The position numbers and the translations under genes are program-made. A DNA stretch of 64,000 nt, taken from IMG/VR virus record IMGVR_UViG_3300039355_000071; one strand, given 5' to 3'. Positions within the stretch are counted from its first letter, which is position 1. Each line of letters starts with the position of its first letter. Shown here piece after piece: positions 1 through 42,955 of the stretch. The stretch is from a virus. The notes under the pieces were generated by a model. It did no database searches. It was not told the origin of the DNA and saw only the letters and a list, made by a program, of their open reading frames with translations.

Positions 1-179
1 TATCCATAGAAATTTAAAACCTTTCTAAGCGTAATCCAACTATAATCCTCATATGACCTATATTTATCAATAAGGATGTATGTAATATAGAATTTTCGAC
101 TAACTCCATATTTTGTTTTGATGTTCCCTTGAATATAATCATTTGGGAAGCGAGTAAAGTATTCTGTTTTCTGTTGCAA
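1..179 (-). CDS. hypothetical protein, N-terminal part only (continues past window start)
   Basis: Minus-strand open frame from TTG (reverse complement of 177-179), preceded by AAGGAGG (reverse complement of 188-194). Translation begins MQQKTEYFTRFPNDYIQGNIKTKYGVSRKFYITYILIDKY and is open to position 1. Confidence 0.3.
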   Translation of the reverse strand, partial: MQQKTEYFTRFPNDYIQGNIKTKYGVSRKFYITYILIDKYRSYEDYSWITLRKVLNFYG

Positions 180-501
180 TAAAAAATTCCTCCTTGTATG
201 TGATATTTATTTATTCTCCATTTGAGATTAAGTGGACGATGAACTTACGAGCGTTCAGTAAAGTAGGTCTGAACCCCCACTTGTTTGTTTTATTTTTGAA
301 ATTGGTAGGGGTTGAAACCAACTTTGCCGAACTGAAAGAAGATATATAACATTATTAATAAGACAGACTATTCCGTTTGTATTTCGCTTACGCTACATAC
401 AAACTCCATAATTTTTTGGTTGATTGTTATTGGTTGGTTTAGATATATGGTGTTTTGAATTAATACTTTCATTTGGGTACATGTATGATGTACCTATAAT
501 T

Positions 502-918
502 TTATTCTCCATCTGAAGTATTATTCTGTTCCAAATCAACATACTTCTCTGTGAAGATATTATCTACAAAAAATACTGGTAGCTTATCATGATACATTTT
601 ATAAATTTCTTCACCTGATATACTTATCCAAAAATTACTACCTATTTGTCTTTGTTTCTGCAATGTTTCAATCTCTTTCCGATATTTACTATTTTTAATT
701 ATTCCTCCAATTTTTCCACAGATAGTACAGTAACTGCATAATGATGTATGAATACGTTCTTTTTCTTCTTGAGTAAATGCATTACTTTTAAAATTCCATT
801 TATATTGGATTAAACATTCTTCATAATGGTGTTTGTGCTTTGATTTTTTATTGGCTTTGGATATATTGCTTTCTCTCTGTTTAAGATATTTTGGTATCTC
901 TATTTCATATTTGTTCAT
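502..918 (-). CDS. hypothetical Cys-containing protein
   Basis: 138-aa ORF. It is the only sizeable minus-strand frame in the left arm. CSYCTICGK motif. No family recognised. Confidence 0.35.
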   Translation of the reverse strand: MNKYEIEIPKYLKQRESNISKANKKSKHKHHYEECLIQYKWNFKSNAFTQEEKERIHTSLCSYCTICGKIGGIIKNSKYRKEIETLQKQRQIGSNFWISISGEEIYKMYHDKLPVFFVDNIFTEKYVDLEQNNTSDGE

Positions 919-1240
919 TTTGTTTTTTTTATTCCTTTCTATGTTTGTGCTTATATATTCTCTGTTTGGAATTTTATTTTTGCGTATCCTTTTATTGGTA
1001 GTAATGGGATATGAGAGGGATTTATTATGTGGTTTTTACGTACCCCCTATGTATGGGGTTAAATTAAAGAAAATGAGTGTGATTTTCGATTTTAGATTGT
1101 TAGGTATGAATTTATCATTGAAGTGGTTTTGATTGAAATTTGAGTCGATTTCGTGCGATTTAGTCTAAAGATTGGGTATTGAAATTAGTTGGGTGAGTAC
1201 TTAGTTATGATGTAAGAAATTAAATATGAGAGTTTTTATT

Positions 1241-1270
1241 TTTTGAATTAAATTTTGAATTAAATTTGGT
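1241..1270. repeat. tandem direct repeat TGAATTAAATTT x2
   Basis: ttttgaattaaattttgaattaaatttgg read directly. Confidence 0.5.
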
Positions 1271-1363
1271 CTGAGAATTTATATCACGATTATTGGATAA
1301 TTTTTCATGAAAACTGGTTATCGGTGAAAATGCTTATATATAAGGAAGATTTTGAGATTGATG

Positions 1364-1465
1364 GTGTGATTTTAGTGTGATGGGATTTTGAAAATTAGGG
1401 GTTGAAGTGGATAAAAGGCTTGTAAAATAAGTGGATTGACGATATTGGGTACGATAAGTGGTTTG
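1364..1465. repeat. iteron-like direct repeats in a GT-skewed non-coding region
   Basis: GTGTGAT at 1364 and 1375. (A/T)AAGTGG(A/T)TT at 1404, 1428 and 1456, spaced about 26 bp. No ORF across this region. Confidence 0.4.
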
Positions 1466-1794
1466 AAGGATGAAATTTTGGATTTTGCTTGATTTTCTTG
1501 GGAATTTTGAGGTTGGAAATAAGGTTACATTTTTGAGTTAGTGTGTGGAATAACCAGCTATGCAGATGCTGCCAAAATGTGACTATCATTTTAGTTTTAA
1601 GTACCCCCATCATATAAAAACGATGGTTAATAGATATATATTGACCACTGTTTTTACTATTAAGTTGATGTAGTTTTTTAAACTATATGAGATAGTATTG
1701 ATATTATTATCTGACATAGTTTAAAGCTATGTTTTATCGTTTATCATAGTTTTAATCTATACTAATCAATTTATAATAAAATCATAAAAATGTG

Positions 1795-1823
1795 TTGACA
1801 ATCATACAAACATATGATAAAGT
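1795..1823 (+). promoter_or_regulatory. sigma-A-type promoter P1 with embedded palindromic operator
   Basis: TTGACA, 17-nt spacer, TG-n-TAAAGT. The spacer contains ATCATAcaaacaTATGAT. Confidence 0.55.
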
Positions 1824-1873
1824 GTAGACAGTTAAGAACGAACCACACGAACAACTGACTAGAAAAAAAGTTC

Positions 1874-1902
1874 TTGACAATCGCAAGTTCTTGTGATAAG
1901 AT
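1874..1902 (+). promoter_or_regulatory. promoter P2 with embedded near-palindromic operator
   Basis: TTGACA, 17 nt, TGaTAAGAT. The spacer contains ATCGCAAGttcTTGTGAT. Confidence 0.55.
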
Positions 1903-1978
1903 AATCTCAACAAAACAAAGAAAAGCAACAAAGTGCTAAGGCTCGGCAAACTCACATAGTTGCAATCAAAAGTTTTTG

Positions 1979-2007
1979 TTGACAATCACACAAACGTGTG
2001 ATACAAT
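1979..2007 (+). promoter_or_regulatory. promoter P3 with embedded perfect palindromic operator
   Basis: TTGACA, 17 nt, TGaTACAAT. The spacer contains ATCACACaaacGTGTGAT. Confidence 0.6.
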
Positions 2008-2061
2008 CTAAGCAACAAATAAACAAGCACCAAGCAAGAAAGAAGGTTGATTCACTGAAAG

Positions 2062-2178
2062 ATGTATAATCCAAAAGGGTACTATGTACCTAGTGGATAC
2101 ATGGGTTATGTATCAGAAGAAAAGAGTTATATACTCTTTTCAACTGAGCAAGATTATCTTGAATACATAACCGACTAA
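2062..2178 (+). CDS. small protein (38 aa), paralog of the 5532 gene
   Basis: MYNPKGYYVPSGYMGYVSEEKSYILFSTEQDYLEYITD. It shares the pattern GY..P.GY.G.V....Y.LF.SE..Y.EY with the 5532..5645 product. Confidence 0.4.
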   Translation: MYNPKGYYVPSGYMGYVSEEKSYILFSTEQDYLEYITD

Positions 2179-2193
2179 CTCACAAATGAATTG

Positions 2194-2775
2194 TATAGAT
2201 AGTCCCTCAACAAGTCTATTCTATCACAATTCGTGAGTTAATTCCACACCAAAAATATAAACAGTTCTATTCATGTATAGGTACTGCTTGCAATTCCTAG
2301 AGTTGTAAGCAAAAGACTAGAAGTGCGTAGGGTTGCTAGTGGTTTTAATATCCAACGTTTCCACTATACAAAGCAGTCCCAAAAGGATGAATATAAAATG
2401 GTTATATGGTTTTACCTAGAAAAAACCTAGTCTGTCAGCTTATTACTTTGCGGACGAACCTACAATATTTTTGTAGGAATAGGGTAGTTCCCTTTAGTGG
2501 TATAGGGTTCACGTTCTTAGATTATTTTCTAGGAGTGGTTAACGATAGAACAAGCAACCGACACATAGATAAATAACTTACGCTAACAAATAAAAGCGTA
2601 CTCTTACAAGGTTCAATTAAAAACTTACTTGTAAGAAGAAATACATAAGAGACAGATACAAGTACAAAGTGGCAGATACTAGGGTAACACCTAGCATTCT
2701 TGATGTTGGGTAACTCCAACTCACATGACCGTTGTACCTCTGTGTTCTGTATGTCAAAGTTATACATAGTTAGAG
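2194..2775 (+). ncRNA. ORF-free, hairpin-rich transcribed segment downstream of P1-P3 (candidate structured RNA or long 5' leader)
   Basis: No ORF of 60 aa or more on either strand looks real. Higher local GC. Several 5-8 bp hairpins (CCTACAAtatttTTGTAGG, CTTACAAG..CTTGTAAG, CTAGGgtaacaCCTAG). Bounded by the terminator at 2776. Confidence 0.25.
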
Positions 2776-2808
2776 GAGCAGATCAGCACTACCAGTCTGC
2801 TCTTTTAT
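2776..2808 (+). terminator. Rho-independent terminator
   Basis: GAGCAGA, 13-nt loop, TCTGCTC, then TTTTAT. Followed by the motif TAGTGTGCAT. Confidence 0.6.
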
Positions 2809-2889
2809 AGTGTGCATAACACTATTACAACAAATACAATAAATCATATTATAGCACCGATTGCATTAAGTCGGAGAAAGAGGTATTTT

Positions 2890-3705
2890 ATGAAAACATT
2901 ATCAATCAATTTTTATGCAAAAAACATCACAGAAGAGTCTAAGTCTGAACTTATGATAGCAGTACAGCACGAGTCTTGCAACATGAATATTCAGTTACTC
3001 GATGATACAATCGCTAAACTTGAGAAGAAGATTGCTAACGAGAACGGCAATTATTCAGCAGAAGAAGTACAAGCTTTCCAGGTACAATTAGATTCTGCAA
3101 ATGAATCACGGAGTAAGTTTGTGGAGACACAGACGGACACATTAGAAGTATACAATAAAGTTATTTCTACTATGTCACAAAAAAATGCTGACCACTTTGG
3201 CAACTCTGCTGATGTTGTAAGAACTGTACTTCGTGTACTTGGCTCATGGGATAACTCTAAACTTGTAAAATATGCAATTATTCCTGCTTTTGAATCACCT
3301 GAACTTTATGAAGCTTTACAGGCAATTCATATTAACTCCAAAGCGGGGGATGACGGAAATCTTGTAATAAGCAAAGAGGTAAAAGAAGCCTATAAAAAGG
3401 CAAGCGCAGAACTCGAAACAATCATCAAGAAAACTTTCTCTCTGCCTTTTGAAACTCCGTATACAGATAAGACAAGAGTGAAACTGACCGCAGAGGATAA
3501 GAAACTTTTAAACGATTGCTACATTAAGGGATTTTCTAACAAATTTGACGTAGACGATGAAAAGGGAACTGTATCATTTAAAAAGCGTCAGATTAACACG
3601 CTTGTAAAGGCAAAAAAGAACCGCAAAACAGGTGAAATTACTTATGATTATAGCGGACTTGCAAGCACTATCAGCAATATTATAATCAAGCATTACTTCG
3701 CATAA
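2890..3705 (+). CDS. hypothetical protein (271 aa)
   Basis: Long ORF. Internal ATG 2890 has the RBS GAGAAAGAGG; the upstream ATG 2812 has none. Confidence 0.55.
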   Translation: MKTLSINFYAKNITEESKSELMIAVQHESCNMNIQLLDDTIAKLEKKIANENGNYSAEEVQAFQVQLDSANESRSKFVETQTDTLEVYNKVISTMSQKNADHFGNSADVVRTVLRVLGSWDNSKLVKYAIIPAFESPELYEALQAIHINSKAGDDGNLVISKEVKEAYKKASAELETIIKKTFSLPFETPYTDKTRVKLTAEDKKLLNDCYIKGFSNKFDVDDEKGTVSFKKRQINTLVKAKKNRKTGEITYDYSGLASTISNIIIKHYFA

Positions 3706-3732
3706 AAGCAACGTAAAATGTATAGTACGAAA

Positions 3733-3760
3733 GGCAGAATTTCGGTTCTGCCTTTTAATA
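3733..3760 (+). terminator. Rho-independent terminator
   Basis: GGCAGAAtttcggTTCTGCC then TTTT. Followed by AATAGTGTGCAT, the same motif as after the 2776 terminator. Confidence 0.65.
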
Positions 3761-3794
3761 GTGTGCATTTTATGTAAAGGAGAGTGAACGCAAA

Positions 3795-4190
3795 ATGAAA
3801 GTGCGAATCAGACGAACACTTGGAAATGAACTTTACCACGGAAAGCAATTTCCGATCAATACAATTGTCTTGCGTAGTGAAAACGGAGTAGAGATTTTCT
3901 GCTCTGATTTTAGAATGAGAAAAGGCAAAATTACTGTGCTTATTCATATTCCAGGTAGAAAGAAATTTCTCAAAACTGAAATGCGTAATGAATATACAAA
4001 GGTAATGTATGACTATACGCAGCAATTCAAAGACGATTCAAAGCGTTTGAATTATAAGCAAATGATGGCACACGATCGAAAACGGAAATGCGGATCTAGT
4101 GGCGTGCGTTTAGGGAAATTCTGTGGTCAAGTAACTGACTATGAATGCACGAAAAATCCATTACATGATTTTAGAAGAGTGTATTGCTAA
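3795..4190 (+). CDS. hypothetical basic protein (131 aa)
   Basis: RBS AAAGGAGAG, ATG start. Confidence 0.5.
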   Translation: MKVRIRRTLGNELYHGKQFPINTIVLRSENGVEIFCSDFRMRKGKITVLIHIPGRKKFLKTEMRNEYTKVMYDYTQQFKDDSKRLNYKQMMAHDRKRKCGSSGVRLGKFCGQVTDYECTKNPLHDFRRVYC

Positions 4191-4212
4191 TCACAAGATT
4201 TTGTGATAGAAT
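4184..4212 (+). promoter_or_regulatory. promoter P4 with perfect palindromic operator, directly upstream of the XRE regulator gene
   Basis: TTGCTA, 17 nt, TGaTAGAAT. The spacer contains ATCACAAgattTTGTGAT. Confidence 0.55.
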
Positions 4213-4241
4213 GGAGGCGTATAAAATGGAGGTGAAGTAAA

Positions 4242-4523
4242 TTGATAGTTTATTATAAATTGTCGAATATTTTAAAAGAACGTAATATGCAATGGAAAGA
4301 CTTATGCGAAGCAGGCATTTCTGTAAACACACCAACAAAATTTTCGCAAAATAAAACTATGAATACGGAAATGATAGATAAAGTTTGTGCATTTCTAAAG
4401 GTTCAACCAGGGGATATAATGGAATGGGTAAATGAATCAGACCAAAAGGAAAGAGAAATCCAAGCGAAAATTGATGCTTTACAAAAGCAACTCGCAGATG
4501 TAAGAGCAAGTAAATCAAATTAA
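4242..4523 (+). CDS. XRE-family helix-turn-helix transcriptional regulator
   Basis: LSNILKERNMQWKDLCEAGISVNTPTKF..ICAFLKVQPGDIMEW matches the Cro/cI-type HTH pattern. TTG start after GGAGGTGA. Confidence 0.6.
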   Translation: MIVYYKLSNILKERNMQWKDLCEAGISVNTPTKFSQNKTMNTEMIDKVCAFLKVQPGDIMEWVNESDQKEREIQAKIDALQKQLADVRASKSN

Positions 4524-4600
4524 ACAATCATAACCCAAAGCACCCACGTAGGCAAAACTACTAGGTGCTATTTTTATACCCAAAATTAAGGAGGCAAACT

Positions 4601-4774
4601 ATGTCAGAAAAAGCAAAAGCAATCCACAATGCCTATTGTGATTATGAAGTTGCAAAGGCAAAACAACCATCACGGATCTATTCAGTCCGGGTAGAAATTA
4701 AAACTAAAAGCGGTGTCAAAACACACAACATGAGCAAGGCAATGTTAGCAAGACAGTTGGCTTTGCTTTATTAA
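4601..4774 (+). CDS. small hypothetical protein (57 aa)
   Basis: RBS AAGGAGG, ATG. Confidence 0.45.
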   Translation: MSEKAKAIHNAYCDYEVAKAKQPSRIYSVRVEIKTKSGVKTHNMSKAMLARQLALLY

Positions 4775-4808
4775 TGTGGTGGAATAAAAAGAAAAAGGAG
4801 GAATTAGC

Positions 4809-5120
4809 ATGAAAACAATGGTCTTATTGGAAACAGAAAACGGTGCAAGATACACACATTTATTGGACGATGTACCAACAAGAGAAATTGAAACGAATGT
4901 GTTATCCGAACTTTCACGGAAAGAGTTTGAAGAGAAATTCCCGGATAAAAACACATGCAATTTATCACAATTCCAACCTGTTTCCCTCGAAAATGGAGAA
5001 GTTCTCATTCAGAAAGAATGGAACGGAGAATGTTACAACACAGGAAGCAAAAACTATTATCCTGTGTATAATCAGTGTGATGAAGATGATTTTGAAATCA
5101 TTGGATATTATCAGAACTAA
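4809..5120 (+). CDS. hypothetical protein (103 aa)
   Basis: RBS AAAGGAGGAA, ATG. Confidence 0.5.
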   Translation: MKTMVLLETENGARYTHLLDDVPTREIETNVLSELSRKEFEEKFPDKNTCNLSQFQPVSLENGEVLIQKEWNGECYNTGSKNYYPVYNQCDEDDFEIIGYYQN

Positions 5121-5199
5121 AACAACATATTAAATCATTAAAGGCAACTTACAATTTGTAGGTTGTCTTTTTTGTGTACAAAAAAAGGAGAATAAGTAA

Positions 5200-5340
5200 A
5201 TGAAAAAAGCAAGATATGATGCAATTCGTATTGCGAAAGAATTACGTTACAACGAAAACACAATCAGCAAAATCAAAGTAGCAACATCAGAAAGTGAAAT
5301 TACACGGATTTTGCATGATGCAAGGGAGGCGATGGAATGA
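5200..5340 (+). CDS. small hypothetical protein (46 aa)
   Basis: RBS AAAAGGAGAATAAG. Stop overlaps the next start (ATGATG). Confidence 0.4.
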   Translation: MKKARYDAIRIAKELRYNENTISKIKVATSESEITRILHDAREAME

Positions 5341-5510
5341 TGCAGAAAGCAATAATATTCCGTGCTTACAACGGAGTTGAAATCATAGACACTCGCCCAG
5401 AAGCAGAAATAGCGTATGAAAATATGCGCTATACAGAGGAACGGGCAAAGAGAAACAAGAAAAGTAAAGAACATAAAAGTTTTGCAGAAATATTATCTGC
5501 ATTGCTTTAG
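5337..5510 (+). CDS. small hypothetical protein (57 aa)
   Basis: Overlapping start, coupled to the previous gene. Confidence 0.4.
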   Translation: MMQKAIIFRAYNGVEIIDTRPEAEIAYENMRYTEERAKRNKKSKEHKSFAEILSALL

Positions 5511-5531
5511 ATAAAATCAAGGAGGTAAAAC

Positions 5532-5645
5532 ATGAAAGGCTATAACACGCCAGAAGGTTATAGAGGGCTTGTAAAAGGTAAATATATGCTTTTCGCAAGC
5601 GAAACTGAATATTATGAATATATGTTAGAGAAGGAGGAAGTATGA
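5532..5645 (+). CDS. small protein (37 aa), paralog of the 2062 gene
   Basis: RBS AAGGAGGTAAAAC. MKGYNTPEGYRGLVKGKYMLFASETEYYEYMLEKEEV. Confidence 0.45.
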   Translation: MKGYNTPEGYRGLVKGKYMLFASETEYYEYMLEKEEV

Positions 5646-5764
5646 CTGAAAAACAGGTAAGGGAAATAAAATGCAACATTTGTGTGAATTGCGGTGACAG
5701 GATTTGTTGCCACGGAATGCAGAGTTGTAAAGATGCAAATGAATATATTCAGAAAGGGAAGTGA
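5642..5764 (+). CDS. small Cys-rich protein (40 aa)
   Basis: ATGA overlap with the previous gene. CNICVNCGDRICCHGMQSC. Confidence 0.4.
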   Translation: MTEKQVREIKCNICVNCGDRICCHGMQSCKDANEYIQKGK

Positions 5765-5770
5765 AACAAA

Positions 5771-5929
5771 ATGAAATATATCACTTATGAAGAACCACTA
5801 AAAGGCAAAACATTCACAGAAAATCAGATGCATGAAGTTTATAGAGACTTAGCAGACAAAACAGAATATCCCGATTTTGAATGTTGGAAAACAGATATGG
5901 TTAAATCTGGTGTATTTGAAGAAGTTTAG
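5771..5929 (+). CDS. small hypothetical protein (52 aa)
   Basis: RBS GGGAAGTGAAAC, ATG. Confidence 0.4.
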   Translation: MKYITYEEPLKGKTFTENQMHEVYRDLADKTEYPDFECWKTDMVKSGVFEEV

Positions 5930-5935
5930 TAACTA

Positions 5936-5966
5936 AACGGCAAGCGAAAGCAAGCCGTTATTTTTA
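5936..5966 (+). terminator. Rho-independent terminator
   Basis: AACGGCaagcgaaagcaaGCCGTT then ATTTTT. Confidence 0.55.
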
Positions 5967-6007
5967 TGTAAAAAATTAAAACAAGAAAGGTTAAAAAGGT
6001 AAAAGTT

Positions 6008-6940
6008 ATGTGTTATTCAAGAAAAGTAGAACCATCAGTAATTGAAAGAGAAATGCAGGAAGCACGGAATAAGGAAGAATTTACAGATAAGGTTGAAACA
6101 ATCACAATTAAGCAGATTGTTGAAAATGCAAAAGTAAATTCACGGTTTGGCGACAAGATACTTGTCAATATCAATCCTTTACATATACATATTCCATCAT
6201 GGCAAAGAATGTGTGATGTAGTTGCAGCAACGGAAATCGGAACAAAGTACAACAAATATAAATGGGAAGTACCGAAGCTGTTATATCTTAATGGAAAACT
6301 TTGGTGTGTAGATGGTATGCATCGAATTTATGGGGCTTTTAAAGGGAAAATCGAATCCGTTATTTGTGAGATTATTGAATGTTCAGAAAAGGAAGCAATT
6401 AAATTATTTCTTGGTCAAGGTATTGATAGACGTAAGATGTCTCAGGTTGACTATTACAGAGCTGCAATCGAGTATGGAGACGAAAATTATATTCAGTTAA
6501 AAGAAGTTTGTAATAATCATAATGTAGCTGTAAAGGGAGATCCAATTGAAAACCAGGTAGGCATCTTTACACCAATTAAAGACGGAATCAAGTCAATTCG
6601 TAAGAATGGAACGGAATTGCTTGATAAAATCATTACTCTAATTACTGATTTACAGTGGAACGGATATGCAGATACATATAATGGGAAAGCATATACTGCA
6701 AAGTATATCAGAGTGATGCATTCACTATATGCGTATTATGAAGGCAGAACAGAGCAAATGGAGAATATCTTAAAAGAGAAATGCATTGGTACAGAGTTTT
6801 TTGTTGAAAATATTATGAACTTGGAACAGTGTGCAGTATTTGATTATCTGTCTGAAATTATTAGATATGAAATGGAAAGTCCATTCACAGAGAAGAAACG
6901 CAAAACTGCAAAGAAAACATTAAAGTCAAAAGCAATGTAA
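6008..6940 (+). CDS. ParB/Srx-like nuclease-domain protein
   Basis: LWCVDGMHRIYGA resembles the ParB N-terminal DGxHR motif. 310 aa. Confidence 0.45.
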   Translation: MCYSRKVEPSVIEREMQEARNKEEFTDKVETITIKQIVENAKVNSRFGDKILVNINPLHIHIPSWQRMCDVVAATEIGTKYNKYKWEVPKLLYLNGKLWCVDGMHRIYGAFKGKIESVICEIIECSEKEAIKLFLGQGIDRRKMSQVDYYRAAIEYGDENYIQLKEVCNNHNVAVKGDPIENQVGIFTPIKDGIKSIRKNGTELLDKIITLITDLQWNGYADTYNGKAYTAKYIRVMHSLYAYYEGRTEQMENILKEKCIGTEFFVENIMNLEQCAVFDYLSEIIRYEMESPFTEKKRKTAKKTLKSKAM

Positions 6941-7091
6941 CAGAGAATAAACAATTAGAAAGCGAGTGATGAAAAATGAAACATCGGTAACAGAAAATAT
7001 CAAAAAAGCAAACCAATATATACAACATATAAATACGAAGCTGTGATAACGGCTACACGGTCACATTATAATAAGGAAAGGATTGGTGTTA

Positions 7092-7286
7092 ATGACATAT
7101 AGAAGAACAAAACAGTTAAGAGAATTTGAACCAATTTTATATAGAAATGGTTATAGATTCGCACGGTGCAAAGGAAGTCATTTCATTTATATTAACAGGA
7201 CTTCTCATAAAATAATCACAGTCAACAAGGACTTAAATAGAATGGTAAGAGAAAGACTTATTAAGGAAATGGAGTTTGGAAAATAA
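7092..7286 (+). CDS. hicA: HicA-like mRNA interferase (type II toxin family)
   Basis: RCKGSHFIYINRTSHKIITVNKDLNRMVRERLIKE fits the HicA/YcfA pattern (KGSH, then a basic tail). The start could be GTG 7086 or ATG 7092. Confidence 0.5.
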   Translation: MTYRRTKQLREFEPILYRNGYRFARCKGSHFIYINRTSHKIITVNKDLNRMVRERLIKEMEFGK

Positions 7287-7287
7287 T

Positions 7288-7518
7288 ATGACAATTGAAG
7301 AATATGAGAACACAAAAAACGAATTAATAAATAATCTGGAATCAGAGCTTGAAAGATTAGCAGACGCTGCAAATGTTTCCTATGATAGTGAGGATGACAT
7401 TGAAAACATCATTGATAAGGCAGAATGTGATTTAGAATTGATTAACTCACAGATATATGATGTTAAAAATGCTTTATCTGAATTACGCAAAATGAGAAAT
7501 ACGAGAATAGAAGAGTAG
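7288..7518 (+). CDS. small acidic coiled-coil protein (possible cognate partner of the HicA-like gene)
   Basis: Immediately downstream and overlapping. It has no HicB-like RNase-H fold signature. Confidence 0.35.
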   Translation: MTIEEYENTKNELINNLESELERLADAANVSYDSEDDIENIIDKAECDLELINSQIYDVKNALSELRKMRNTRIEE

Positions 7519-7531
7519 GGAGGTGTAAAAG

Positions 7532-7915
7532 ATGAAATGGATAGAGTTATTACGGAAAGATAATTATGCATTATTACAAAGCGAAAGTGATACACAATAT
7601 GCGGTTGTAAGTGGTTACGATCCTGCACAGCCAGAGAATCAGCAGTGGTCACACGGAACATATTTTACTTATTGGAATAATGCAAAGAGAAAGGCAGATT
7701 GCTTGCAAAATGCTTTAGATTGTTTCAGAAGTAGAACAGAAGAGAATTATGTAACCAAAGGTCAGAAATACCTTGAAATCTACAGATATGACTATATGGA
7801 AGGCACGTTTAGGGAAATCTTACAGTCATTAGATTTAGATGATGACTTGGTTGGTGATTCGCTTGGATGCTACTGCATTGTGGATGAAAATAGTTTGAAA
7901 AGTAAGGAGAAATAA
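7532..7915 (+). CDS. hypothetical protein (127 aa)
   Basis: RBS GGGAGGTG. Confidence 0.5.
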   Translation: MKWIELLRKDNYALLQSESDTQYAVVSGYDPAQPENQQWSHGTYFTYWNNAKRKADCLQNALDCFRSRTEENYVTKGQKYLEIYRYDYMEGTFREILQSLDLDDDLVGDSLGCYCIVDENSLKSKEK

Positions 7916-7917
7916 TT

Positions 7918-8172
7918 ATGTCACGGAAAGCAGAAGAATATGTAGTGGGGATTTTATTTCCTTATGAAAATAGAACAGAAATCAAATATGTAACAAGCAT
8001 ATCAAGTAAATCAAAGGTTGCAAAGTGGGAGGATGGACAAAATGCAATGACTTTTTCAAAAGCATATGCAAAGGATCTTGCATGGGGATTAACATTAAAC
8101 GGAAACCCTGCAATTGCAATGTTGAAAGAATCGTATTTGCATTTGGAAAATCCTAAAATAGAAAGTGAGTGA
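7918..8172 (+). CDS. hypothetical protein (84 aa)
   Basis: Coupled to the previous gene. Confidence 0.45.
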   Translation: MSRKAEEYVVGILFPYENRTEIKYVTSISSKSKVAKWEDGQNAMTFSKAYAKDLAWGLTLNGNPAIAMLKESYLHLENPKIESE

Positions 8173-8177
8173 TTAAT

Positions 8178-8396
8178 ATGACAGTTGGAAAATTAAAAGC
8201 GATGTTGGAAGAATATAACGAAGATATGGAAATTATATTTCAGCCATCAGGGAATGCATATGGAGAGCGTATTGGACATGTTATTAAGGAAGGCAAGGGA
8301 ATAGCTCCGTTTAGAGGTAAAGACTACAAGGCGTTAATTCTTACTTCTGATGGACAATGTGGTGAAGTTTGTAACGAGGATGATTTAGATTTATAA
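8178..8396 (+). CDS. hypothetical protein
   Basis: ATG at 8178. Confidence 0.4.
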   Translation: MTVGKLKAMLEEYNEDMEIIFQPSGNAYGERIGHVIKEGKGIAPFRGKDYKALILTSDGQCGEVCNEDDLDL

Positions 8397-8409
8397 AAGG
8401 AGTGATAGT

Positions 8410-8589
8410 ATGTTAGATAAACTAACAGATGAACAGAAAGAGAAGATCGCTATTTTGTGCGAACAAATTAATTACATTTTCACAGAAGAAGACAATGGAT
8501 ACACAGAAGATAATATTGATGAATATTATAGAAGTTCTCTTTATAAGGGAGTTTCGGGTGTTATGTATGAACTTGGGAAATGGTGCTAG
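8410..8589 (+). CDS. small hypothetical protein (59 aa)
   Basis: RBS AAAGGAGTGA, ATG. Better supported than the overlapping track ORFs 8422..8604(-) and 8429..8620(+). Confidence 0.45.
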   Translation: MLDKLTDEQKEKIAILCEQINYIFTEEDNGYTEDNIDEYYRSSLYKGVSGVMYELGKWC

Positions 8590-8623
8590 AAACAGATATT
8601 TCAAGGTAAAAGGAGAATGAACA

Positions 8624-8917
8624 ATGGTAAGAATTGGTAGTATTGGAATAAATTTGCAGGATGAAACAAAAGAAGTTTCATCCGAAAATAAAGTTTTGAG
8701 TTTTCATCTTTTTGGTCAGTGTCCAAAATGCAAAAGAGAAATAGAACTTGTAGAATCTATGAAAACAGATTCTTGTGAATGCGAAGATTCATATTCATTC
8801 ACAGGTTGGAGATATAAATGTAAATGTGGTCATGTGGTGCAAATTCATGAAGATGCTTTTGATTCTGTCATTGATTCGTTTTATGAAGTTGGATTTGTAG
8901 AAGAAAACGCAGAGTAA
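8624..8917 (+). CDS. zinc-ribbon protein (97 aa)
   Basis: CPKCKRE...CKCGH. RBS AAAGGAGAA. Confidence 0.5.
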   Translation: MVRIGSIGINLQDETKEVSSENKVLSFHLFGQCPKCKREIELVESMKTDSCECEDSYSFTGWRYKCKCGHVVQIHEDAFDSVIDSFYEVGFVEENAE

Positions 8918-8945
8918 ATGGATATTTCATAAGGAGGTAAGCAAA

Positions 8946-9107
8946 ATGAAAGACGGAATCCACGGAAATAGAGAACAGGTTGAGAAATTATCAGCAAGCA
9001 GAATTTTAAGTGAATTATATGACAAGGCGAAAATCGAAAATGATGGGAAAGTTCATATTAGAGAAATCAAAAACGGACATGTCGGAGAAATGATTGAAAA
9101 ATATTAA
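8946..9107 (+). CDS. small hypothetical protein (53 aa)
   Basis: RBS AAGGAGGTAAGC. Confidence 0.45.
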   Translation: MKDGIHGNREQVEKLSASRILSELYDKAKIENDGKVHIREIKNGHVGEMIEKY

Positions 9108-9146
9108 CAAATAAATACGTGTTTTCATTAGAAAGGAGAAATAAAA

Positions 9147-9359
9147 ATGGCAAGAACAAATTTTGATATTATTAGAGGTTTAATGATTGCAGATAATACT
9201 CTTGACTCTTGGATTTGTGAAACAGAAGCAGAAGAGAAAAGAGATTTGACAGCAGAAGAAGAGAATGCATATATTCAGAATATTGTGGATATATGCGAAG
9301 AGATAATGCAGGGTTTGTCTTGCACTTTAGTGGAAGCATATAAAGAGATTTCGGAGTAA
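9147..9359 (+). CDS. small acidic protein (70 aa)
   Basis: RBS GAAAGGAGAA. Confidence 0.5.
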   Translation: MARTNFDIIRGLMIADNTLDSWICETEAEEKRDLTAEEENAYIQNIVDICEEIMQGLSCTLVEAYKEISE

Positions 9360-9373
9360 AGAGGAGAAACAGA

Positions 9374-9583
9374 ATGGATATTATTGAAGAAAAAGGGTAG
9401 ACAGTAACCTATATTCCTTGGGAAGATACGGAAGGCAGACCAAGAGTGGCAGGAAGATTCAAAACTACAAGGGAAAAAGATGAATTTTTAGAAAAGATTC
9501 ATGAACCTGATTCTGGATGGATGGATGAAGAACTTGCAATGATTAGTATAATCAATGATTACAATTACATGTTGCCAAGATAG
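9374..9583 (+). CDS. hypothetical protein interrupted by an in-frame TAG at codon 9 (9398-9400)
   Basis: Strong RBS AGAGGAGAAACAGA, then ATG. The frame stays open for 61 codons after the TAG. Confidence 0.3.
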
Positions 9584-9615
9584 GAAATTCGCATTTCAAA
9601 GGAAAGGAGCAAATT

Positions 9616-9786
9616 ATGGATAGATACTTAGTTGTGTGGTTAAGAGAAGGCAGAGAGAATGTTGATGTCATTGATAATGCTATCACTCCGCATGAAGCGG
9701 CTAATAAGGTAAAGGAAATGCATTTAAATGCTAACGTAGTAGCAGTAGGCATTATGTTAGATAACGAACAGTGGAATTATCTGTAG
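9616..9786 (+). CDS. small hypothetical protein (56 aa)
   Basis: RBS GGAAAGGAGC. Confidence 0.4.
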   Translation: MDRYLVVWLREGRENVDVIDNAITPHEAANKVKEMHLNANVVAVGIMLDNEQWNYL

Positions 9787-9829
9787 TAGTTAAAACTAAG
9801 ATTTCTTGGTATGATTGGAGGTAACTAAG

Positions 9830-10114
9830 ATGTTTAAAGTTGGTGATTTAGTATATGTATCTAATCCAGATACAGAATACGAAAAGGAATATGGAGAGAG
9901 AACACATAAAAGCTTCTTTGGTACAGTAACAGATGTTACAGAATATACAGATGAAATTTGTGTAGAAGTGAAATTTCCAGCAACACCAAACGGATGTGCA
10001 ATGGAATGGAGCTATAATACAAACGAATTATCACTTGCAAAGAAACTTAAAGATATGACTATTGAAGAGTTGAGCAACAAATTCAACCTTCAGATTTTTG
10101 CTGAATATCTATAA
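9830..10114 (+). CDS. hypothetical protein
   Basis: RBS GGAGGTAA, ATG at 9830. Confidence 0.5.
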   Translation: MFKVGDLVYVSNPDTEYEKEYGERTHKSFFGTVTDVTEYTDEICVEVKFPATPNGCAMEWSYNTNELSLAKKLKDMTIEELSNKFNLQIFAEYL

Positions 10115-10205
10115 TGTTTAGTAACTAAACAAAATAATGCAAACGCAAAGGCAGTTAGGAGAATAATCTACTAGCTGCCTATTTTATTACAAGGAGGAAA
10201 CGAAT

Positions 10206-10475
10206 ATGAGCAGATGGCTATATGATCCTGAAACGGATTCACGGAATGGGAAAGAGTTTACTTACAATTTGCCAATACATGAAAATGAGGACTTACTTTT
10301 AGGTTTTACATATAGGCAAATTATGGATGAAGTGATTGCAAATTACGGTCACAATGTAACAGAAAAAGAAATCAGAAAACAGGTAAACGAACATCTGGAA
10401 ATGGTTAAAGAAAATATGGAAGAAAATTTAATGTTGTGTATCGACAGTATGTTGAAAGGAATTAAGGAGGCGTAA
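10206..10475 (+). CDS. hypothetical protein (89 aa)
   Basis: RBS AAGGAGGAAAC. Confidence 0.5.
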   Translation: MSRWLYDPETDSRNGKEFTYNLPIHENEDLLLGFTYRQIMDEVIANYGHNVTEKEIRKQVNEHLEMVKENMEENLMLCIDSMLKGIKEA

Positions 10476-10477
10476 TT

Positions 10478-11209
10478 ATGTATAAAATCATTAACCCATG
10501 TAAATGTAAAGTTTACACAAGAACAGGAAACGAAGTAGATGGAAATGCATTTGTGAAAATTGAATATAAAGATTCAAAATTAAGTATGAGTGGTGTAGTT
10601 GCGCCATTATCAAACGGAGATTGTCTTGGCTCTGCTGGTCAGTGTGTAGATGAAATTAGAAATGGTTCACCAACAGATGAGTGGACAACGGAAATGCTTA
10701 ACAAATTATGTGATATTTGGGACAGATGGCATTTGAATGATATGTGTCCTTATTGTGAACACATGAGAGAACTTGGATGGACAGAACACACTCAGGATAA
10801 AGTTAAAATTGAGAAATGGACTTTAACAAAAGAAGCTTGTCAGAAAAAAGATAACGCAAAGAAAAGAGCATTGGAATGTTTGAAAAATGGAGAACCATTT
10901 TATCCAACTAAAGAGGAAACAACATATGCAAATATGGAATATTCTATTGATGTTTATGATGGTGAAGAAGTCACTTATGGAGAAGCATACGAATTAAAAG
11001 AGAAAGATTGTTTAGGACATTCAAATACAGAATATAAGACAAGAGGTTGGATTTCATATAAAGATCACAAACTCGGTTTTATTGGTAGAGAATGCCCAGT
11101 GTGCGGTTATAAATACGGAACTGCTTGGAAGATGGAAGAAGTACCACAGGATATAATTGAGTGGCTGGAAAGTTTACCAGAAACTAAAGTAAAGCCAGCA
11201 TGGGTATAA
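10478..11209 (+). CDS. hypothetical Cys-rich protein (243 aa)
   Basis: RBS AAGGAGG. Several CxxC pairs. Confidence 0.55.
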   Translation: MYKIINPCKCKVYTRTGNEVDGNAFVKIEYKDSKLSMSGVVAPLSNGDCLGSAGQCVDEIRNGSPTDEWTTEMLNKLCDIWDRWHLNDMCPYCEHMRELGWTEHTQDKVKIEKWTLTKEACQKKDNAKKRALECLKNGEPFYPTKEETTYANMEYSIDVYDGEEVTYGEAYELKEKDCLGHSNTEYKTRGWISYKDHKLGFIGRECPVCGYKYGTAWKMEEVPQDIIEWLESLPETKVKPAWV

Positions 11210-11220
11210 GGAAGTCTAGT

Positions 11221-11460
11221 ATGAGAGAAATTGAAGTAAACAATGGATGTAAGATTGTATTAGAGAATAAATCACAAGGTATAGAAGTTATTCATTGTGA
11301 CAGTAAGGGAGGTATTGCATATAGTTACAATATTCCTGATGGCGAACTTGTAATGTTGCTGAATTATTACAGAAACTGTAAGAGTGGCAGAGAAAAATCT
11401 GATTATATATTAGAAGGTAAAATTAGAAATACGAACACGGATATCGTTGAATATATATAG
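11221..11460 (+). CDS. hypothetical protein
   Basis: RBS AAGGAAG. Confidence 0.4.
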   Translation: MREIEVNNGCKIVLENKSQGIEVIHCDSKGGIAYSYNIPDGELVMLLNYYRNCKSGREKSDYILEGKIRNTNTDIVEYI

Positions 11461-11560
11461 TCAAAGGAAATTGTAATTTCTCGGTAGAATAATTACAAGA
11501 TATAGTAGTAAATAAAACAAACAAACACAATATATAGTATAAGAAAAGGAGATTAAAATT

Positions 11561-12073
11561 ATGAGAGCAAACGAAGTAAAGGAAACAAGAGAAGTAGTAG
11601 TAAGAACAGAGTACATTGCAGAGGATGGAACTGTATTTAGAAGCGAAGAAGAGTGCAAGAAATATGAGGAATCAGCACTTTTTGCAATTAGTAAAGAGTT
11701 AAAGAGACTGACAAAAGATAATACATCTCAAAGTGAAATCAATGATAATTTTTCATATGATGATACTGTAGAAATTTTTGATGTACAGACAGAAAGAGAT
11801 TTAGAAAATCTTAGAAGATATTTATATCTTAAAGCAAGAAATAATGGAGCATCCGAAAGTAGTGTAAATGATTGTTTTAAGTCAACAGATGGAAAAAGAA
11901 ACAATTATGTGTTTAGTAATGTAACATATGGACACGAAGTAATGATCTTTTGGGATTATGAAGAACAGTGGTTCTGGGTATATGGAAATGGTAGCATTGA
12001 GGCATTTTGCAATTTCCATAAGGATAGAATCACAAAGCTTATTACACCAAAGGAGGAAAATGCAGATGCTTAA
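11561..12073 (+). CDS. hypothetical protein (170 aa)
   Basis: RBS AAAAGGAGAT. Preceded by the CACAATATATAGTAT motif. Confidence 0.55.
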   Translation: MRANEVKETREVVVRTEYIAEDGTVFRSEEECKKYEESALFAISKELKRLTKDNTSQSEINDNFSYDDTVEIFDVQTERDLENLRRYLYLKARNNGASESSVNDCFKSTDGKRNNYVFSNVTYGHEVMIFWDYEEQWFWVYGNGSIEAFCNFHKDRITKLITPKEENADA

Positions 12074-19684: not shown

Positions 19685-19689
19685 GGTTG

Positions 19690-20715
19690 ATGAACATGTG
19701 TTACAAAATAGAAGTACAAAACAAAAATGCTGAAAAGCTTAATATGAAGTTGGATGAGTTAAACGCACCACAGTTTTTAAGAGGTTACTTGAATGAATTG
19801 GAAAGTAAAAGTGGAGCGTTAAATTATTTAGTGGCAATTAAAGATTTTTTACAGTGGTTGATTGAAAGTAATATCATTAATAAAAAATCAATTTCTGAAA
19901 TAGAAGTTTCTGATTTTAGTGACTTACGACCACAAAATATTAGTTCATACCTTAGATATAAAGAAACAAATGGAATGTCACCAACCACAACGGAAACAAG
20001 AAAGAATATTATAAAAAGTTTTATAAAAAATGTATATTCATATAGAGAATGTTTATTGAGAGAACTCTATAACAGTATGGAAGATTTTAGTAAACAAATA
20101 AAATATAAAGGAATATCTTCTAAAAACAACTTAACACAAAAACTTCCAACAGAAAATCAGCTTAATGATATGGAAGAAAAAATAATGTGGAAAAAGGATG
20201 AATGTGTAAGGAATAGAAATATTGCTATTTTTCGTGTCTTAAGAGGAACTGGAATAAGAGAGTCTGAACTTGCTGGCTTGGATTTATCAGATTTGCATTT
20301 AGATGAAAATAATGAATATATTGATCTTAATGATATGTCACATATTATGGTTTTACCAAAAGGATATCAAAGAGAAACTGAAAAAAGACCTGTGTATCTT
20401 ACTGGATCTGCTCTGAAAGCATTAAGAGAATGGTTAGAGTATAGAAATACATTGGATAATATTGTAGACAAAGAAGCTGTGTTCGTAAATAAAAATGGTA
20501 CACGTACAACAGAGAGAAATATCAAACAGATATTTGAGAATTATGGAAATGGTATTACTCCACATATGATGCGACATTATTATGCTAGTATAATGAACAG
20601 AAATGGAAATCTTGCATTTGTTCAGCAGCAGTTGGGGCATAGTAGTGTAAATACAACAGTTAATAATTATGCCAATGGAGCTGTGGGAATGAAAACAGTT
20701 TTGGAGAATATGTAA
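19690..20715 (+). CDS. int: tyrosine site-specific recombinase/integrase (XerC/D-like)
   Basis: TGIRESELAGLDLSDL (Arg box), HMMRHYYAS and LGHSSVNTTVNNYAN (His-x-x-Arg and the catalytic Tyr region). RBS GTGAGG. Confidence 0.8.
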   Translation: MNMCYKIEVQNKNAEKLNMKLDELNAPQFLRGYLNELESKSGALNYLVAIKDFLQWLIESNIINKKSISEIEVSDFSDLRPQNISSYLRYKETNGMSPTTTETRKNIIKSFIKNVYSYRECLLRELYNSMEDFSKQIKYKGISSKNNLTQKLPTENQLNDMEEKIMWKKDECVRNRNIAIFRVLRGTGIRESELAGLDLSDLHLDENNEYIDLNDMSHIMVLPKGYQRETEKRPVYLTGSALKALREWLEYRNTLDNIVDKEAVFVNKNGTRTTERNIKQIFENYGNGITPHMMRHYYASIMNRNGNLAFVQQQLGHSSVNTTVNNYANGAVGMKTVLENM

Positions 20716-22667: not shown

Positions 22668-22691
22668 TTACAAAATAATAGTAGAAGGGAG

Positions 22692-42111: not shown

Positions 42112-42114
42112 AAT

Positions 42115-42951: not shown

Positions 42952-42955
42952 AATT

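Follow-up and report, generated by a model that had tools for sequence, protein, structure and literature searches.

Stl, VanU-G and CylR2 are small repressors that act on inverted repeats at promoters. The controller (C) proteins of restriction-modification systems time gene expression after DNA entry, activating and then repressing through two adjacent boxes that lie upstream of the −35 or overlap it, and dyads in promoter spacers are the classical targets of MerR-type proteins. CRP/FNR sites read TGTGA-N6-TCACA and are found near −41.5, and NrdR uses paired, AT-centred 16-bp boxes before nrd genes. Anti-CRISPR-associated (Aca) autorepressors act on an inverted repeat placed inside a near-consensus, strong core promoter (PMC9410906), and the N-terminal domain of AcrIIA1 provides an “anti-anti-CRISPR” precedent, a homologue being host-encoded next to CRISPR-Cas (bioRxiv 10.1101/787200). 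HTH_26/PF13443 goes unmentioned in a 2026 survey of Aca families. Omega/ParB of pSM19035 recognizes 5'-WATCACW-3' heptads in sites that overlap promoters, at least 2–4 contiguous heptads being needed (PMC9499535).

Here we report on 64 kb (the window) of a viral genome of approximately 157 kb, in which an XRE regulator gene lies behind one of four promoters that share a palindromic dyad; the features detailed below between positions 1795 and 4577 are all on the + strand. A preliminary description had located these promoters at 1795, 1874, 1979 and 4184, and all four were found at those positions. P1 (1795..1823) reads TTGACA, ATCATACAAACATATGAT and AAAGT, that is, a −35 TTGACA (1795-1800), the dyad ATCATA-N6-TATGAT (1801-1818) and an extended −10 TGaTAAAGT; an identical copy of this 29-mer is present in 17 related loci. 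P2 (1874..1902; TTGACA, ATCGCAAGTTCTTGTGAT, AAGAT) has a −35 TTGACA, the dyad ATCGCAAG-TT-CTTGTGAT (1880-1897) and a −10 TAAGAT. P3 (1979..2007; TTGACA, ATCACACAAACGTGTGAT, ACAAT), with −35 TTGACA, dyad ATCACAC-AAAC-GTGTGAT (1985-2002) and −10 TACAAT, is the consensus copy: it has no mismatch, 11 of 12 hexamer matches plus the TG, and is the promoter nearest to the RNA described below. P4 (4184..4212; TTGCTA, ATCACAAGATTTTGTGAT, AGAAT), the XRE gene's own promoter, combines a weak −35 TTGCTA with the dyad ATCACAA-GATT-TTGTGAT (4190-4207) and a −10 TAGAAT. The shared architecture noticed earlier, a −35, a 17-nt spacer and an extended −10, holds in all four sites, the −35 being TTGACA in P1-P3 and TTGCTA in P4. 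P1-P4 rank among the best sigma-A-like sites of region 1-9000, and only five such sites there have a TG before the −10, four of them being P1-P4.

The 18-bp dyad, ATCACA-N6-TGTGAT, covers −29 to −12 in P1-P4 and is centred at −20.5. It had been described as lying precisely between the −35 and the −10; it is in the spacer, but ends on a base that also opens the −10 (the first T), and the TGTG within it is at once the −16 (TRTG) element. Similarly, the palindrome with a 4-6 bp centre was seen correctly, its arms being 6-7 bp long, but the P1 copy, still symmetric, is a weaker variant (ATCATA/TATGAT), and one arm of P2 departs from the consensus at a single base (ATCGCA); relatives have ATCACAAGTTCTTGTGAT at the equivalent position. 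When both strands of the 64 kb were scanned with the 29-nt consensus at up to 3 mismatches, a check suggested at the outset, exactly four matches were obtained, P1-P4, and none in 100 dinucleotide shuffles. An independent scan of the window for ATC...GAT palindromes gave no further dyad of the P1-P4 type. GTGTGAT occurs nine times in the window, including the copies at 1364 and 1375 that had been proposed as half-sites; related phages do not keep these two (GGTGAATTTTTGATGAGAT and similar), and a role for them as auxiliary half-sites was rejected. Compared with CRP/FNR and NrdR sites, the arms are reversed (TCACA...TGTGA), the centre is at −20.5 and the middle is variable. A genome match before nrdD, at locus L179, resembles a true NrdR box and is unrelated to the phage dyad. 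A literature search for the dyad motif returned nothing relevant.

The XRE gene (4242..4523, TTG start) encodes a 93-aa protein that matches Pfam HTH_26 (E = 2e-14, 54 bits against a cut-off of 22), the only strong helix-turn-helix among the 122 ORFs of the window. C-terminal to the helix-turn-helix is a 28-residue helix in which hydrophobic residues repeat at a 3-4 spacing; in the AF2 monomer model, I73, I77, L80, L84 and V87 follow this pattern along helix 65-92, which may form a coiled coil. Model pLDDT is 80.6, and lowest (about 59) at the recognition region, residues 31-40. The predicted fold matches XRE repressors and resembles small dimeric ones, its nearest neighbours being the N-terminal domain of SaPI2 Stl (8q86), VanU-G (3tyr) and CylR2 (1utx/2xiu), with which it shares the compact helix-turn-helix fold at 18-32% identity over about 65 residues. 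However, these proteins have other C-terminal parts, and their operators and biological contexts are unrelated. The fold also matches the C proteins (C.BclI, C.AhdI), small XRE-fold dimers with palindromic boxes in their own promoter, but here a single dyad occupies the spacer and no restriction-modification genes follow. Searching PDB sequences, which include Aca1, Aca2 and Aca10, returned no Aca at E ≤ 1.

Outside the window, the exact dyad core was found in 112 viral contigs, mostly from gut phages of 80-220 kb, often as two or three tandem copies. Among the 94 different 29-mers they hold, the arms never change and the centre varies; the seed pattern biases their logo towards invariant arms. 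Related phage DNA totalling 967 kb contains 207 dyads, 204 of them with a TTG at the −35 position, and the dyad occurs there almost exclusively in promoter spacers. Essentially two targets of dyad promoters exist across the family, the RNA locus and the XRE gene. These phages are uncultured and undeposited: a near-identity search of positions 1-12000 against 50,697 deposited phages gave no match.

The dyad and the XRE gene travel together. All 55 viral loci holding an XRE homologue (45-99% identity) carry the dyad about 50 nt upstream of it, 44 exactly and 11 with a one-arm mismatch, and P4-type promoters were not selected by the search pattern that had gathered these loci. Among the 35 unique upstream regions carrying it, the dyad starts 50-56 nt before the XRE start codon, and the −35 is non-consensus in 31. 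In the reciprocal, protein-first search, the dyad was present where the recognition region read [IL]S[VTQ]N[TM]P..[KR]FS[QK]N and absent upstream of paralogues with a different helix 3, the recognition helix. Three XRE relatives (L252-L254) have a near-canonical recognition region and no dyad upstream. The same dyad promoters also flank a second subfamily of HTH_26 genes, which belongs to Lachnospiraceae elements.

A copy of the cassette was also found in a bacterial genome. A 75%-identical XRE gene, with its dyad promoter and terminators, forms a 454-nt “giant spacer” in the type III-A CRISPR array of a gut bacterium, in the order terminator, dyad promoter, XRE gene, terminator. In each of the 24 contigs read, the XRE homologue was inside a type III-A array, and the cassette is intact on at least 189 contigs. 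Ordinary spacers of the same arrays match the phage family at 34/34 and 35/35 positions. Literature searches for a gene or a repressor inside a CRISPR array returned nothing relevant, and no report of a working phage repressor gene stored in one.

Since the dyad accompanies XRE proteins that keep the same recognition region and is missing from those with a changed helix 3, an autoregulated XRE repressor is well supported. The gene at 4242 had been singled out as the candidate, a proposal that its synteny with the dyad, the reciprocal search, the absence of the dyad where helix 3 differs and the mobile cassette now strongly back at the comparative level. Most likely, then, the dyad is the binding site of the neighbouring small XRE repressor.

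Concerning what P1-P3 transcribe, the picture differs from what had been expected. The repressor-controlled early promoter set that had been proposed gains comparative evidence, but P1-P3 head a 38-aa ORF and a structured RNA rather than early protein genes. The ORF (MYNPKGYYVPSGYMGYVSEEKSYILFSTEQDYLEYITD, 2062..2178), at the 5' end of the P1-P3 transcript, has tblastn matches in 43 loci (53-97% identity); it has no Pfam or PHROG family, and the peptide is kept in most relatives and absent from the L104/L054/L092 group. The RNA, of approximately 0.8 kb (2015..2806; 5' end deduced from the P3 −10, 3' end at T1), has a fold z of −6.1 and compensatory changes in 24 of 43 pairs. In the alignment, 96.6% of cells are paired, versus 35-47% when partners are slid, and two hairpins with GGGUAA loops (2678-2694 and 2706-2721) are conserved. 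Several relatives have no ORF in this stretch, and public gene calling places no gene in it. Rfam gave no match at E ≤ 1 for positions 1-6000, nor at E ≤ 0.1 for four related loci. This is an undescribed structured RNA with clear covariation, and probably the phage's first and most abundant transcript. It ends at the intrinsic terminator T1 (2774..2806; GAGCAGA...TCUGCUC UUUU; −18.1 kcal/mol, z = −3.4), the stem of which covaries across phages. Directly 3' of T1 lies a conserved palindrome, TATAGTGTGCATAACACTAT (2806..2825), one half of which, TAGTGTGCAT, is repeated after T2 at 3759. As a genome-wide promoter motif TAGTGTGCAT was rejected (only two exact copies, not above chance); it is a local element that follows terminators.

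Two genes separate the RNA from P4. orf2890 (2890..3705, 271 aa) is syntenic 3' of the RNA in relatives (43-99% identity) and is followed by the intrinsic terminator T2 (3729..3757; −16.3 kcal/mol, z = −4.2). orf3795 (3795..4190, 131 aa) has its stop codon inside the P4 −35 hexamer, and no terminator lies between it and the XRE gene. Neither is of a known family, and no Pfam, PHROG or PDB match was found for them; most small early ORFs also have no Pfam or PHROG family. A terminator-like hairpin with a U-run, T3 (4539..4577; −13.7 kcal/mol, z = −3.6), follows the XRE gene, which can therefore form a self-contained promoter-gene-terminator unit. An equivalent hairpin follows the CRISPR-embedded copy.

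We consider it probable that these elements form a phage repressor-operator switch, in which XRE 4242 would control P1-P4 through ATCACA-N6-TGTGAT. From the sequences we infer binding, repression and the timing of events as follows. A dimer of the 93-aa XRE/HTH_26 protein would bind the dyad. As the dyad fills the spacer from the base following the −35 to the first −10 base, the bound dimer should shut out sigma-A RNA polymerase. Once DNA is available, the three tandem consensus promoters P1-P3 would fire, yielding an mRNA for the 38-aa peptide fused to the 0.8 kb structured RNA and ending at T1. P4, with the same operator and a weak −35, would make the repressor, which on accumulating would close P1-P3 and limit P4 by negative feedback.

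This type of switch is already known, being Cro/Aca-like; the unusual parts are the RNA and the CRISPR-embedded cassette. With the Aca proteins (Aca1-13 and the AcrIIA1 N-terminal domain) the proposed system shares a small helix-turn-helix dimer (here predicted), one inverted repeat in a near-consensus core promoter (at P1-P4), a putative negative feedback on a very strong immediate-early promoter, and a link with CRISPR-Cas, in this case an XRE homologue in a host III-A array that also holds phage-matching spacers. It differs in that the host copy is inside the array and not beside cas genes, that no known acr gene (Pfam, PHROG) lies upstream and the main product to be regulated is a non-coding RNA, and that the repressor has its own operator-promoter in addition to three tandem ones. 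Lambda Cro/CI, 434, P22 and PBSX Xre also combine an XRE fold, palindromes of about 18 bp over early promoters, several operators and autoregulation. Unlike in these phages, neither a divergent PR/PRM pair nor a second repressor acting as antagonist is evident, the operators are unclustered, one per promoter and exactly in the spacer, and XRE 4242 has no cleavable C-terminal domain.

We prefer to see the switch as a transient early brake, Cro/Aca-like, rather than as a CI-like device. If XRE instead maintained lysogeny, P1-P3 would be kept off for generations in an integrated prophage of 150-200 kb, which we regard as possible though rather unlikely. A tyrosine integrase gene in the window (19687-20715), a window ORF matching a recombination directionality factor family, and the exact XRE protein lying mid-contig on metagenome contigs of 250-606 kb are what such a prophage could show, and P4-XRE-T3 can form an autonomous, self-limiting unit. 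However, the layout is not the divergent one of CI and Cro, a 93-aa protein leaves no sensor or cleavage domain, and the XRE gene is co-directional within the early region, with no terminator after orf3795. Moreover, only one of 185,579 species-representative genomes (L114, L207) contains the tandem promoters with XRE, few for a common prophage, and lytic, SPO1-like Bacillus phages of similar size encode proteins that share 61-63% identity with one window ORF.

The early brake by XRE was also weighed against other readers of the dyad. The same −35/dyad/−10 arrangement precedes about 18 DUF1836/MerR-like genes, about 10 flotillin/NfeD genes and 6 rplJ genes in genomes of Clostridia, the rplJ cases being in Acutalibacteraceae. 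None of these host-gene copies has an XRE gene nearby, so that another protein could read these arms. A host regulator, DUF1836/MerR-like for instance, might then read the phage dyad as well, which would make the first phage promoters answer to a signal of the host. MerR-type proteins are classical binders of spacer dyads, and the phage encodes its own flotillin (31224-32804), but we hold the idea to be improbable. The DUF1836/MerR-like and flotillin/NfeD promoters carry ATCACATGACC[AG]TGTGAT, and conservation in this host regulon extends to the central bases TGACC[AG], whereas the centre varies freely in the phages. All four phage sites have a 17-nt spacer, versus the over-long 19-20 nt typical of MerR promoters, and no MerR or DUF1836 gene is present in the window, nor any DUF1836 homologue in the phage loci. 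A host reader would also leave unexplained the strict synteny of XRE and dyad, the loss of the dyad where helix 3 is changed, and the capture of the cassette together with XRE.

Alternatively, another phage protein would bind the dyad, the XRE gene being a target and not the repressor, which appears very improbable. With 64 kb of approximately 157 kb in view, other DNA-binding proteins or sites may exist, and most small early ORFs are without a family. In addition, the half-site with its flanks (AATCACA/TATCACA) fits the WATCACW heptad of the omega repressor of pSM19035. But omega, a ribbon-helix-helix protein, needs contiguous heptads, and the dyad is an inverted pair 6 bp apart beside a helix-turn-helix gene. 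Neither a ribbon-helix-helix nor a second helix-turn-helix family was found among the 122 ORFs, and the CRISPR cassette, which is intact on all those contigs, holds only XRE and the dyad promoter.

The dyad could finally be part of the promoter itself. In ordinary promoters of the host loci, TRTG is present at −16 but the left 6-mers are random; the left arm is therefore a specific addition, and a promoter-intrinsic origin of the whole dyad was rejected for this arm. The right arm serves at the same time as the Gram-positive −16 TRTG element and first −10 base, which leaves the left arm alone as pure operator. No variation is seen at arm positions 1-6, and position 7 is complementary more often than expected (63% vs 33%), which simple half-site recognition does not predict and shared ancestry could produce. 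That no protein binds, and that the dyad acts through promoter sequence or shape, or as a hairpin of RNA or single-stranded DNA, is a most remote reading: the right arm is a genuine promoter element, position 7 covaries, and transcription from upstream promoters runs through P2 and P3, the dyads of which would exist as RNA, but the left arm is missing from ordinary host promoters, no dyad promoter lies upstream of P1 or P4 to transcribe them, and the hairpin was rejected on the invariance, without covariation, of positions 1-6 and on weak predicted folding (P1, −3.2 kcal/mol, z = −0.24, no better than shuffles).

With XRE as the preferred reader, the place of the cassette in the arrays can be considered. 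Tentatively, and with more doubt than confidence, we suggest that the switch is a brake on an immediate-early counter-defence locus with the RNA as its chief product, and that the host-captured cassette encodes a domesticated repressor which would silence the first promoters of an incoming phage. Capture would possibly have occurred by recombination between two neighbouring spacers and the protospacers flanking the XRE gene. The separate idea that the RNA is an anti-CRISPR was rejected, no stretch of the window matching the CRISPR repeat within 3 mismatches.

Early promoters that carry the operators of a repressor are, taken alone, textbook biology. For an uncultured family of gut Clostridia phages that is both large and abundant, the locus adds a precise, testable regulatory code, ATCACA-N6-TGTGAT and one 93-aa protein. 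The reuse of the −16 element as an operator arm is a compact design that could serve in engineered Firmicute promoters, and the switch points to an undescribed structured RNA. Finally, a repressor cassette is fixed in a host type III-A array that also bears ordinary anti-phage spacers. If our suggestion is true, this would be a protein-based “anti-anti-defence” kept within adaptive immune memory: should the host copy act as a repressor on the early promoters of the phage, a CRISPR array would serve bacteria as the store of a working phage repressor gene.

Four + strand promoters, P1 (1795), P2 (1874), P3 (1979) and P4 (4184), share a 17-nt spacer and a TG-extended -10. In all four, an 18-bp dyad (ATCACA-N6-TGTGAT) begins directly at the first base past the -35 hexamer, which is TTGACA in P1, P2 and P3, and TTGCTA in P4. 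Re-reading the sequence reproduced exactly the positions and architecture claimed in the preliminary description. The motif scan suggested there, run with a 29-nt consensus at up to 3 mismatches on both strands of the 64 kb, returned P1-P4 only; no match occurred in 100 shuffles, and an independent scan of the window for ATC...GAT palindromes revealed no further site of this type. A generic promoter scan was uninformative overall (46 sites versus 42 expected). P3, P1 and P2 ranked among its best matches, and only five of its sites in 1-9000 had an upstream TG, four of them being P1-P4.

The exact core, TTGACAATCACA-N6-TGTGATA, is present in 112 IMG/VR contigs, mostly of 80-220 kb, with many clustering at 150-160 kb. 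Sites in these relatives often occur as 2 or 3 tandem copies, some 80-200 bp apart. Among the 94 different 29-mers collected from viral loci, the central six bases vary freely and the arms are invariant, an invariance inflated by the seed pattern. TTG occupied the -35 position for 204 of the 207 dyads found in 967 kb of related DNA; the dyad is therefore never free-standing.

TRTG at -16 is a Gram-positive promoter element. In 790 kb of Clostridia DNA, ordinary sigma-A-like promoters have TGTGGT, TATGAT or TGTGTT directly before the -10, and a random 6-mer after the -35. TGTGAT, the right arm, is therefore formed by the -16 element of the promoter and the initial T of its -10, which explains the constant register of the dyad; the left arm, ATCACA, is a mirror image added to the promoter. 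A purely promoter-intrinsic origin of the dyad is ruled out by the random left 6-mer. As RNA hairpins the dyads are weak, that of P1 being no better than its own shuffles. Arm positions 1-6 are invariant and do not covary; position 7 is complementary in 63% of cases versus 33% expected, and is the sole such position.

The HTH gene at 4242 had been proposed as the autoregulated candidate. ORF 4242-4523 encodes an HTH_26/XRE protein (E = 2e-14), and carries the only strong HTH among the 122 window ORFs. Homologues (45-99% identity, tblastn) were found in 55 of the 112 viral loci, each of them with a dyad some 50 nt upstream (44 exact, 3 with TGTGGT, 8 with ATTACA), which at the sequence level speaks for the proposal. 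The P4-type promoters of relatives mostly have a non-consensus -35 (TTGCTA, TTGTGA, TTGAAA, TTGCGG), so they were not selected by the search pattern; a reciprocal, protein-first search gave the same XRE-dyad link in 44 loci. The dyad is kept with all recognition-region variants ISVNTPTKFSQNK, ISVNMPAKFSKNK, ISVNMPQRFSQNK and ISTNMPTRFSQNK, and paralogues with LSINMPKRLETNK, LSPTIIAKFQKNR, LSTNIISKISKNE or LSPSMTAKFTKNR have none. The exception is a small clade (L252-L254) with a near-canonical helix and no upstream dyad. A second HTH_26 subfamily, in Lachnospiraceae elements (genome loci L125, L155, L174, L178, L189, L195, L210, L219), has the same dyad promoters on both sides of the gene; the downstream one lies within the gene's own 3' end (...IDNH, encoded by aTTGACAATCACa).

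In the AF2 model of the XRE protein (pLDDT 80.6), an HTH core is followed by a C-terminal helix of 28 residues that shows a 3-4 hydrophobic repeat. Among solved structures, the closest folds are those of the SaPI2 Stl N-terminal domain, VanU-G and CylR2; DdrO, C-proteins and SinR come next. In the leader of the gene (4209-4241), a duplicated ATGGAGG[CT]G, conserved in relatives, forms two Shine-Dalgarno-like boxes and a 4-codon mini-ORF. Upstream of P4, many relatives (L001, L004, L019, L029 and others) carry an additional half-site, TATCACAAAT, some 21 nt before the left arm of the dyad; the window lacks it.

We consider it probable that an autoregulated XRE repressor controls P1-P4, a dimer occupying the spacer of each. 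Here, as for the phage lifestyle, we infer: the dimer would fill the promoter spacer, and strong P1-P3 together with a weak P4 would produce a burst, then shut-off.

Host genomes carry these arms too: 115 genome loci, mostly of Clostridia, match the pattern exactly. Some of the matches are due to chance or belong to unrelated boxes, and one ahead of nrdD resembles an NrdR box. Conservation is seen in three groups. Two of them, about 18 DUF1836/MerR-like genes and about 10 flotillin/NfeD genes, share cTATTGACA-ATCACATGACC[AG]TGTGAT-ATAAT, in which the central bases of the dyad are conserved as well; in Oscillospirales genomes (L113, L142, L151, L176 and others; L123, L137, L152, L169 and others), the shared promoter has the look of a host regulon that uses these arms. 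The third group consists of six Acutalibacteraceae promoters of rplJ, encoding ribosomal protein L10 (L121, L128, L156, L166, L170, L182), with TTGACA-ATCACA-N6-TGTGAT, conserved arms and a variable centre. Conservation at these three groups would favor reading of the dyad by a host factor rather than by the phage XRE protein; we hold this to be very unlikely, as it fits neither the variable centre of the phage sites, nor the 17-nt spacer, nor the XRE linkage.

Across the family, only three things follow dyad promoters in appreciable numbers: another dyad promoter, an ORF-free stretch or the XRE gene. In the window, P3 is followed by a 38-aa ORF, conserved as a peptide, then by about 630 nt without credible ORF up to a strong terminator, T1. 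The layout of 1-3 tandem promoters, 770-1240 nt and an orf2890 homologue (43-99% identity) was found in 36 distinct loci, several of which have no ORF of at least 30 aa anywhere in the promoter-to-orf2890 stretch, and public gene calling places no gene in the RNA stretch. The predicted main product of P1-P3 is a previously undescribed structured RNA of about 0.8 kb (2015-2806, + strand), with strong covariation, two GGGUAA-loop hairpins and a conserved terminator. Folding of the transcript is much more stable than that of shuffles (z = -6.1). RNAalifold, applied to 24 aligned sequences of the 3' 310 nt, gave 43 pairs, with compensatory double changes in 24; 96.6% of cells were paired, versus 35-47% when partners were slid by 1-3 columns. 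The covariation score was 0.48 versus 0.04-0.10, and none of 500 shuffles reached 0.48. In the two GGGUAA-loop hairpins the loop is invariant and the stem covaries; the window has no other GGGTAANNCC site. Rfam gave no match for this RNA.

Beyond T1 the order is orf2890, terminator T2, orf3795, P4, XRE gene, terminator T3; orf3795 ends with a stop codon inside the -35 hexamer of P4. A conserved palindrome, TATAGTGTGCATAACACTAT, stands directly after T1 (2806-2825), and half of it, TAGTGTGCAT, again after T2 (3759-3768); in relatives and in the CRISPR cassette described below, it lies between terminator and P4, and it may be a second regulatory site. A hairpin, CACCGAUUGCAUUAAGUCGG (2857-2876), extends into the first GGAG upstream of orf2890 and covaries across phages (CCGA/UCGG versus CCUA/UAGG); it may serve translation control or mark a processing site.

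The window has a G+C content of 32%, and nearly all plausible genes are on the + strand from about 2 kb on, as is typical of phages. No near-identical sequence was found among 50,697 deposited phages searched with 1-12000, and a 685-aa ORF has 61-63% identity to proteins from SPO1-like Bacillus phages of 155-165 kb. A tyrosine integrase (mid-window), one ORF matching a recombination directionality factor family, tRNA-Gln, tRNA-Met, an RlaP-type RNA-repair nucleotidyltransferase and a CCA-adding enzyme are encoded at 19687-20715 (the integrase), 22265-22668 and 33555-36935. The window also encodes a C5 methyltransferase, a flotillin (31224-32804), and an NAD+ salvage/re-synthesis cluster (41599-45632: isochorismatase/nicotinamidase-like, phosphoribosyltransferase/PRPP synthetase, NAMPT/NAPRTase, NAD synthase) which resembles phage counter-measures to NAD-depleting defences. 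Toxin-like genes of the early region encode HicA (7083-7286), whose partner may lie at 7276-7518, and a PemK/MazF-like protein (21307-21687). Of all the DNA at this locus, 1300-1650 is conserved most widely (60-69 of the 112 loci). It is non-coding and C-poor, in a divergent intergenic region just upstream of P1, with GC skew up to +0.65 and conserved blocks including GTTATCGGTGAAAA.GCTTATATATAAGGAAG and GACGATATGGGGTACGATAAG; candidate roles are origin, packaging site and leftward control region.

The exact XRE protein was found on 693 contigs, the longest of 606 kb. A 75%-identical homologue, P0110 (recognition region ISVNTPQKFSQNK), comes from many independent human-gut samples, including one 1.96-Mb contig, and lies between csm5 and cas1 of a type III-A locus in 24 of 24 contigs read (L277-L288, e.g. 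L278:4845-5335; NCBI CAXVQW010083806.1). Its cassette is in spacer position, as a single 454-nt unit flanked by two intact 36-nt repeats (ATTGAGATTAGATATGCCCCGGGAGGGGACGAAAAC), with 9-32 repeats upstream and 6-8 downstream. The unit comprises the 3'-terminal 55 nt of the phage RNA together with its terminator and TATAGTGTGCAT, a promoter TTGATA-ATCACATTATAATGTGAT-ATGAT, the XRE ORF and a terminator. It matches the window at 82% (2768-2822) and 76% (4184-4526), and has the same layout as phages L250 and L251. Upstream repeat number differs from sample to sample but the position of the cassette does not, pointing to an old and stable insertion.

Ordinary spacers of the cassette arrays (L287) match the phage family (L079, L036, L047, L249-L251 and others). 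One is identical over 34/34 nt to the P4 -35 and whole dyad of a sister clade, one is 93-96% identical to the XRE gene 3' end, antisense to the mRNA, and one matches 35/35 nt, also antisense, 3.5 kb downstream of the XRE gene. These matches make the cassette-bearing bacterium a host for this phage family, and the XRE region a source of spacers. No further dyad was found in the 10 kb examined at the CRISPR locus, and there is thus no sign that the host copy regulates cas genes through the dyad. The closest precedent is the 'anti-anti-CRISPR' role of the AcrIIA1 N-terminal repressor when encoded by a host (bioRxiv 10.1101/787200); Aca proteins generally bind a single inverted repeat located within a strong consensus promoter (PMC9410906). 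In the literature searched, we found no report of a repressor gene inside a CRISPR array.

This kind of switch is already known, and what is new is the instance at the level of this phage family. Its interest is raised beyond the switch itself by the regulated structured RNA and by the CRISPR-embedded cassette.
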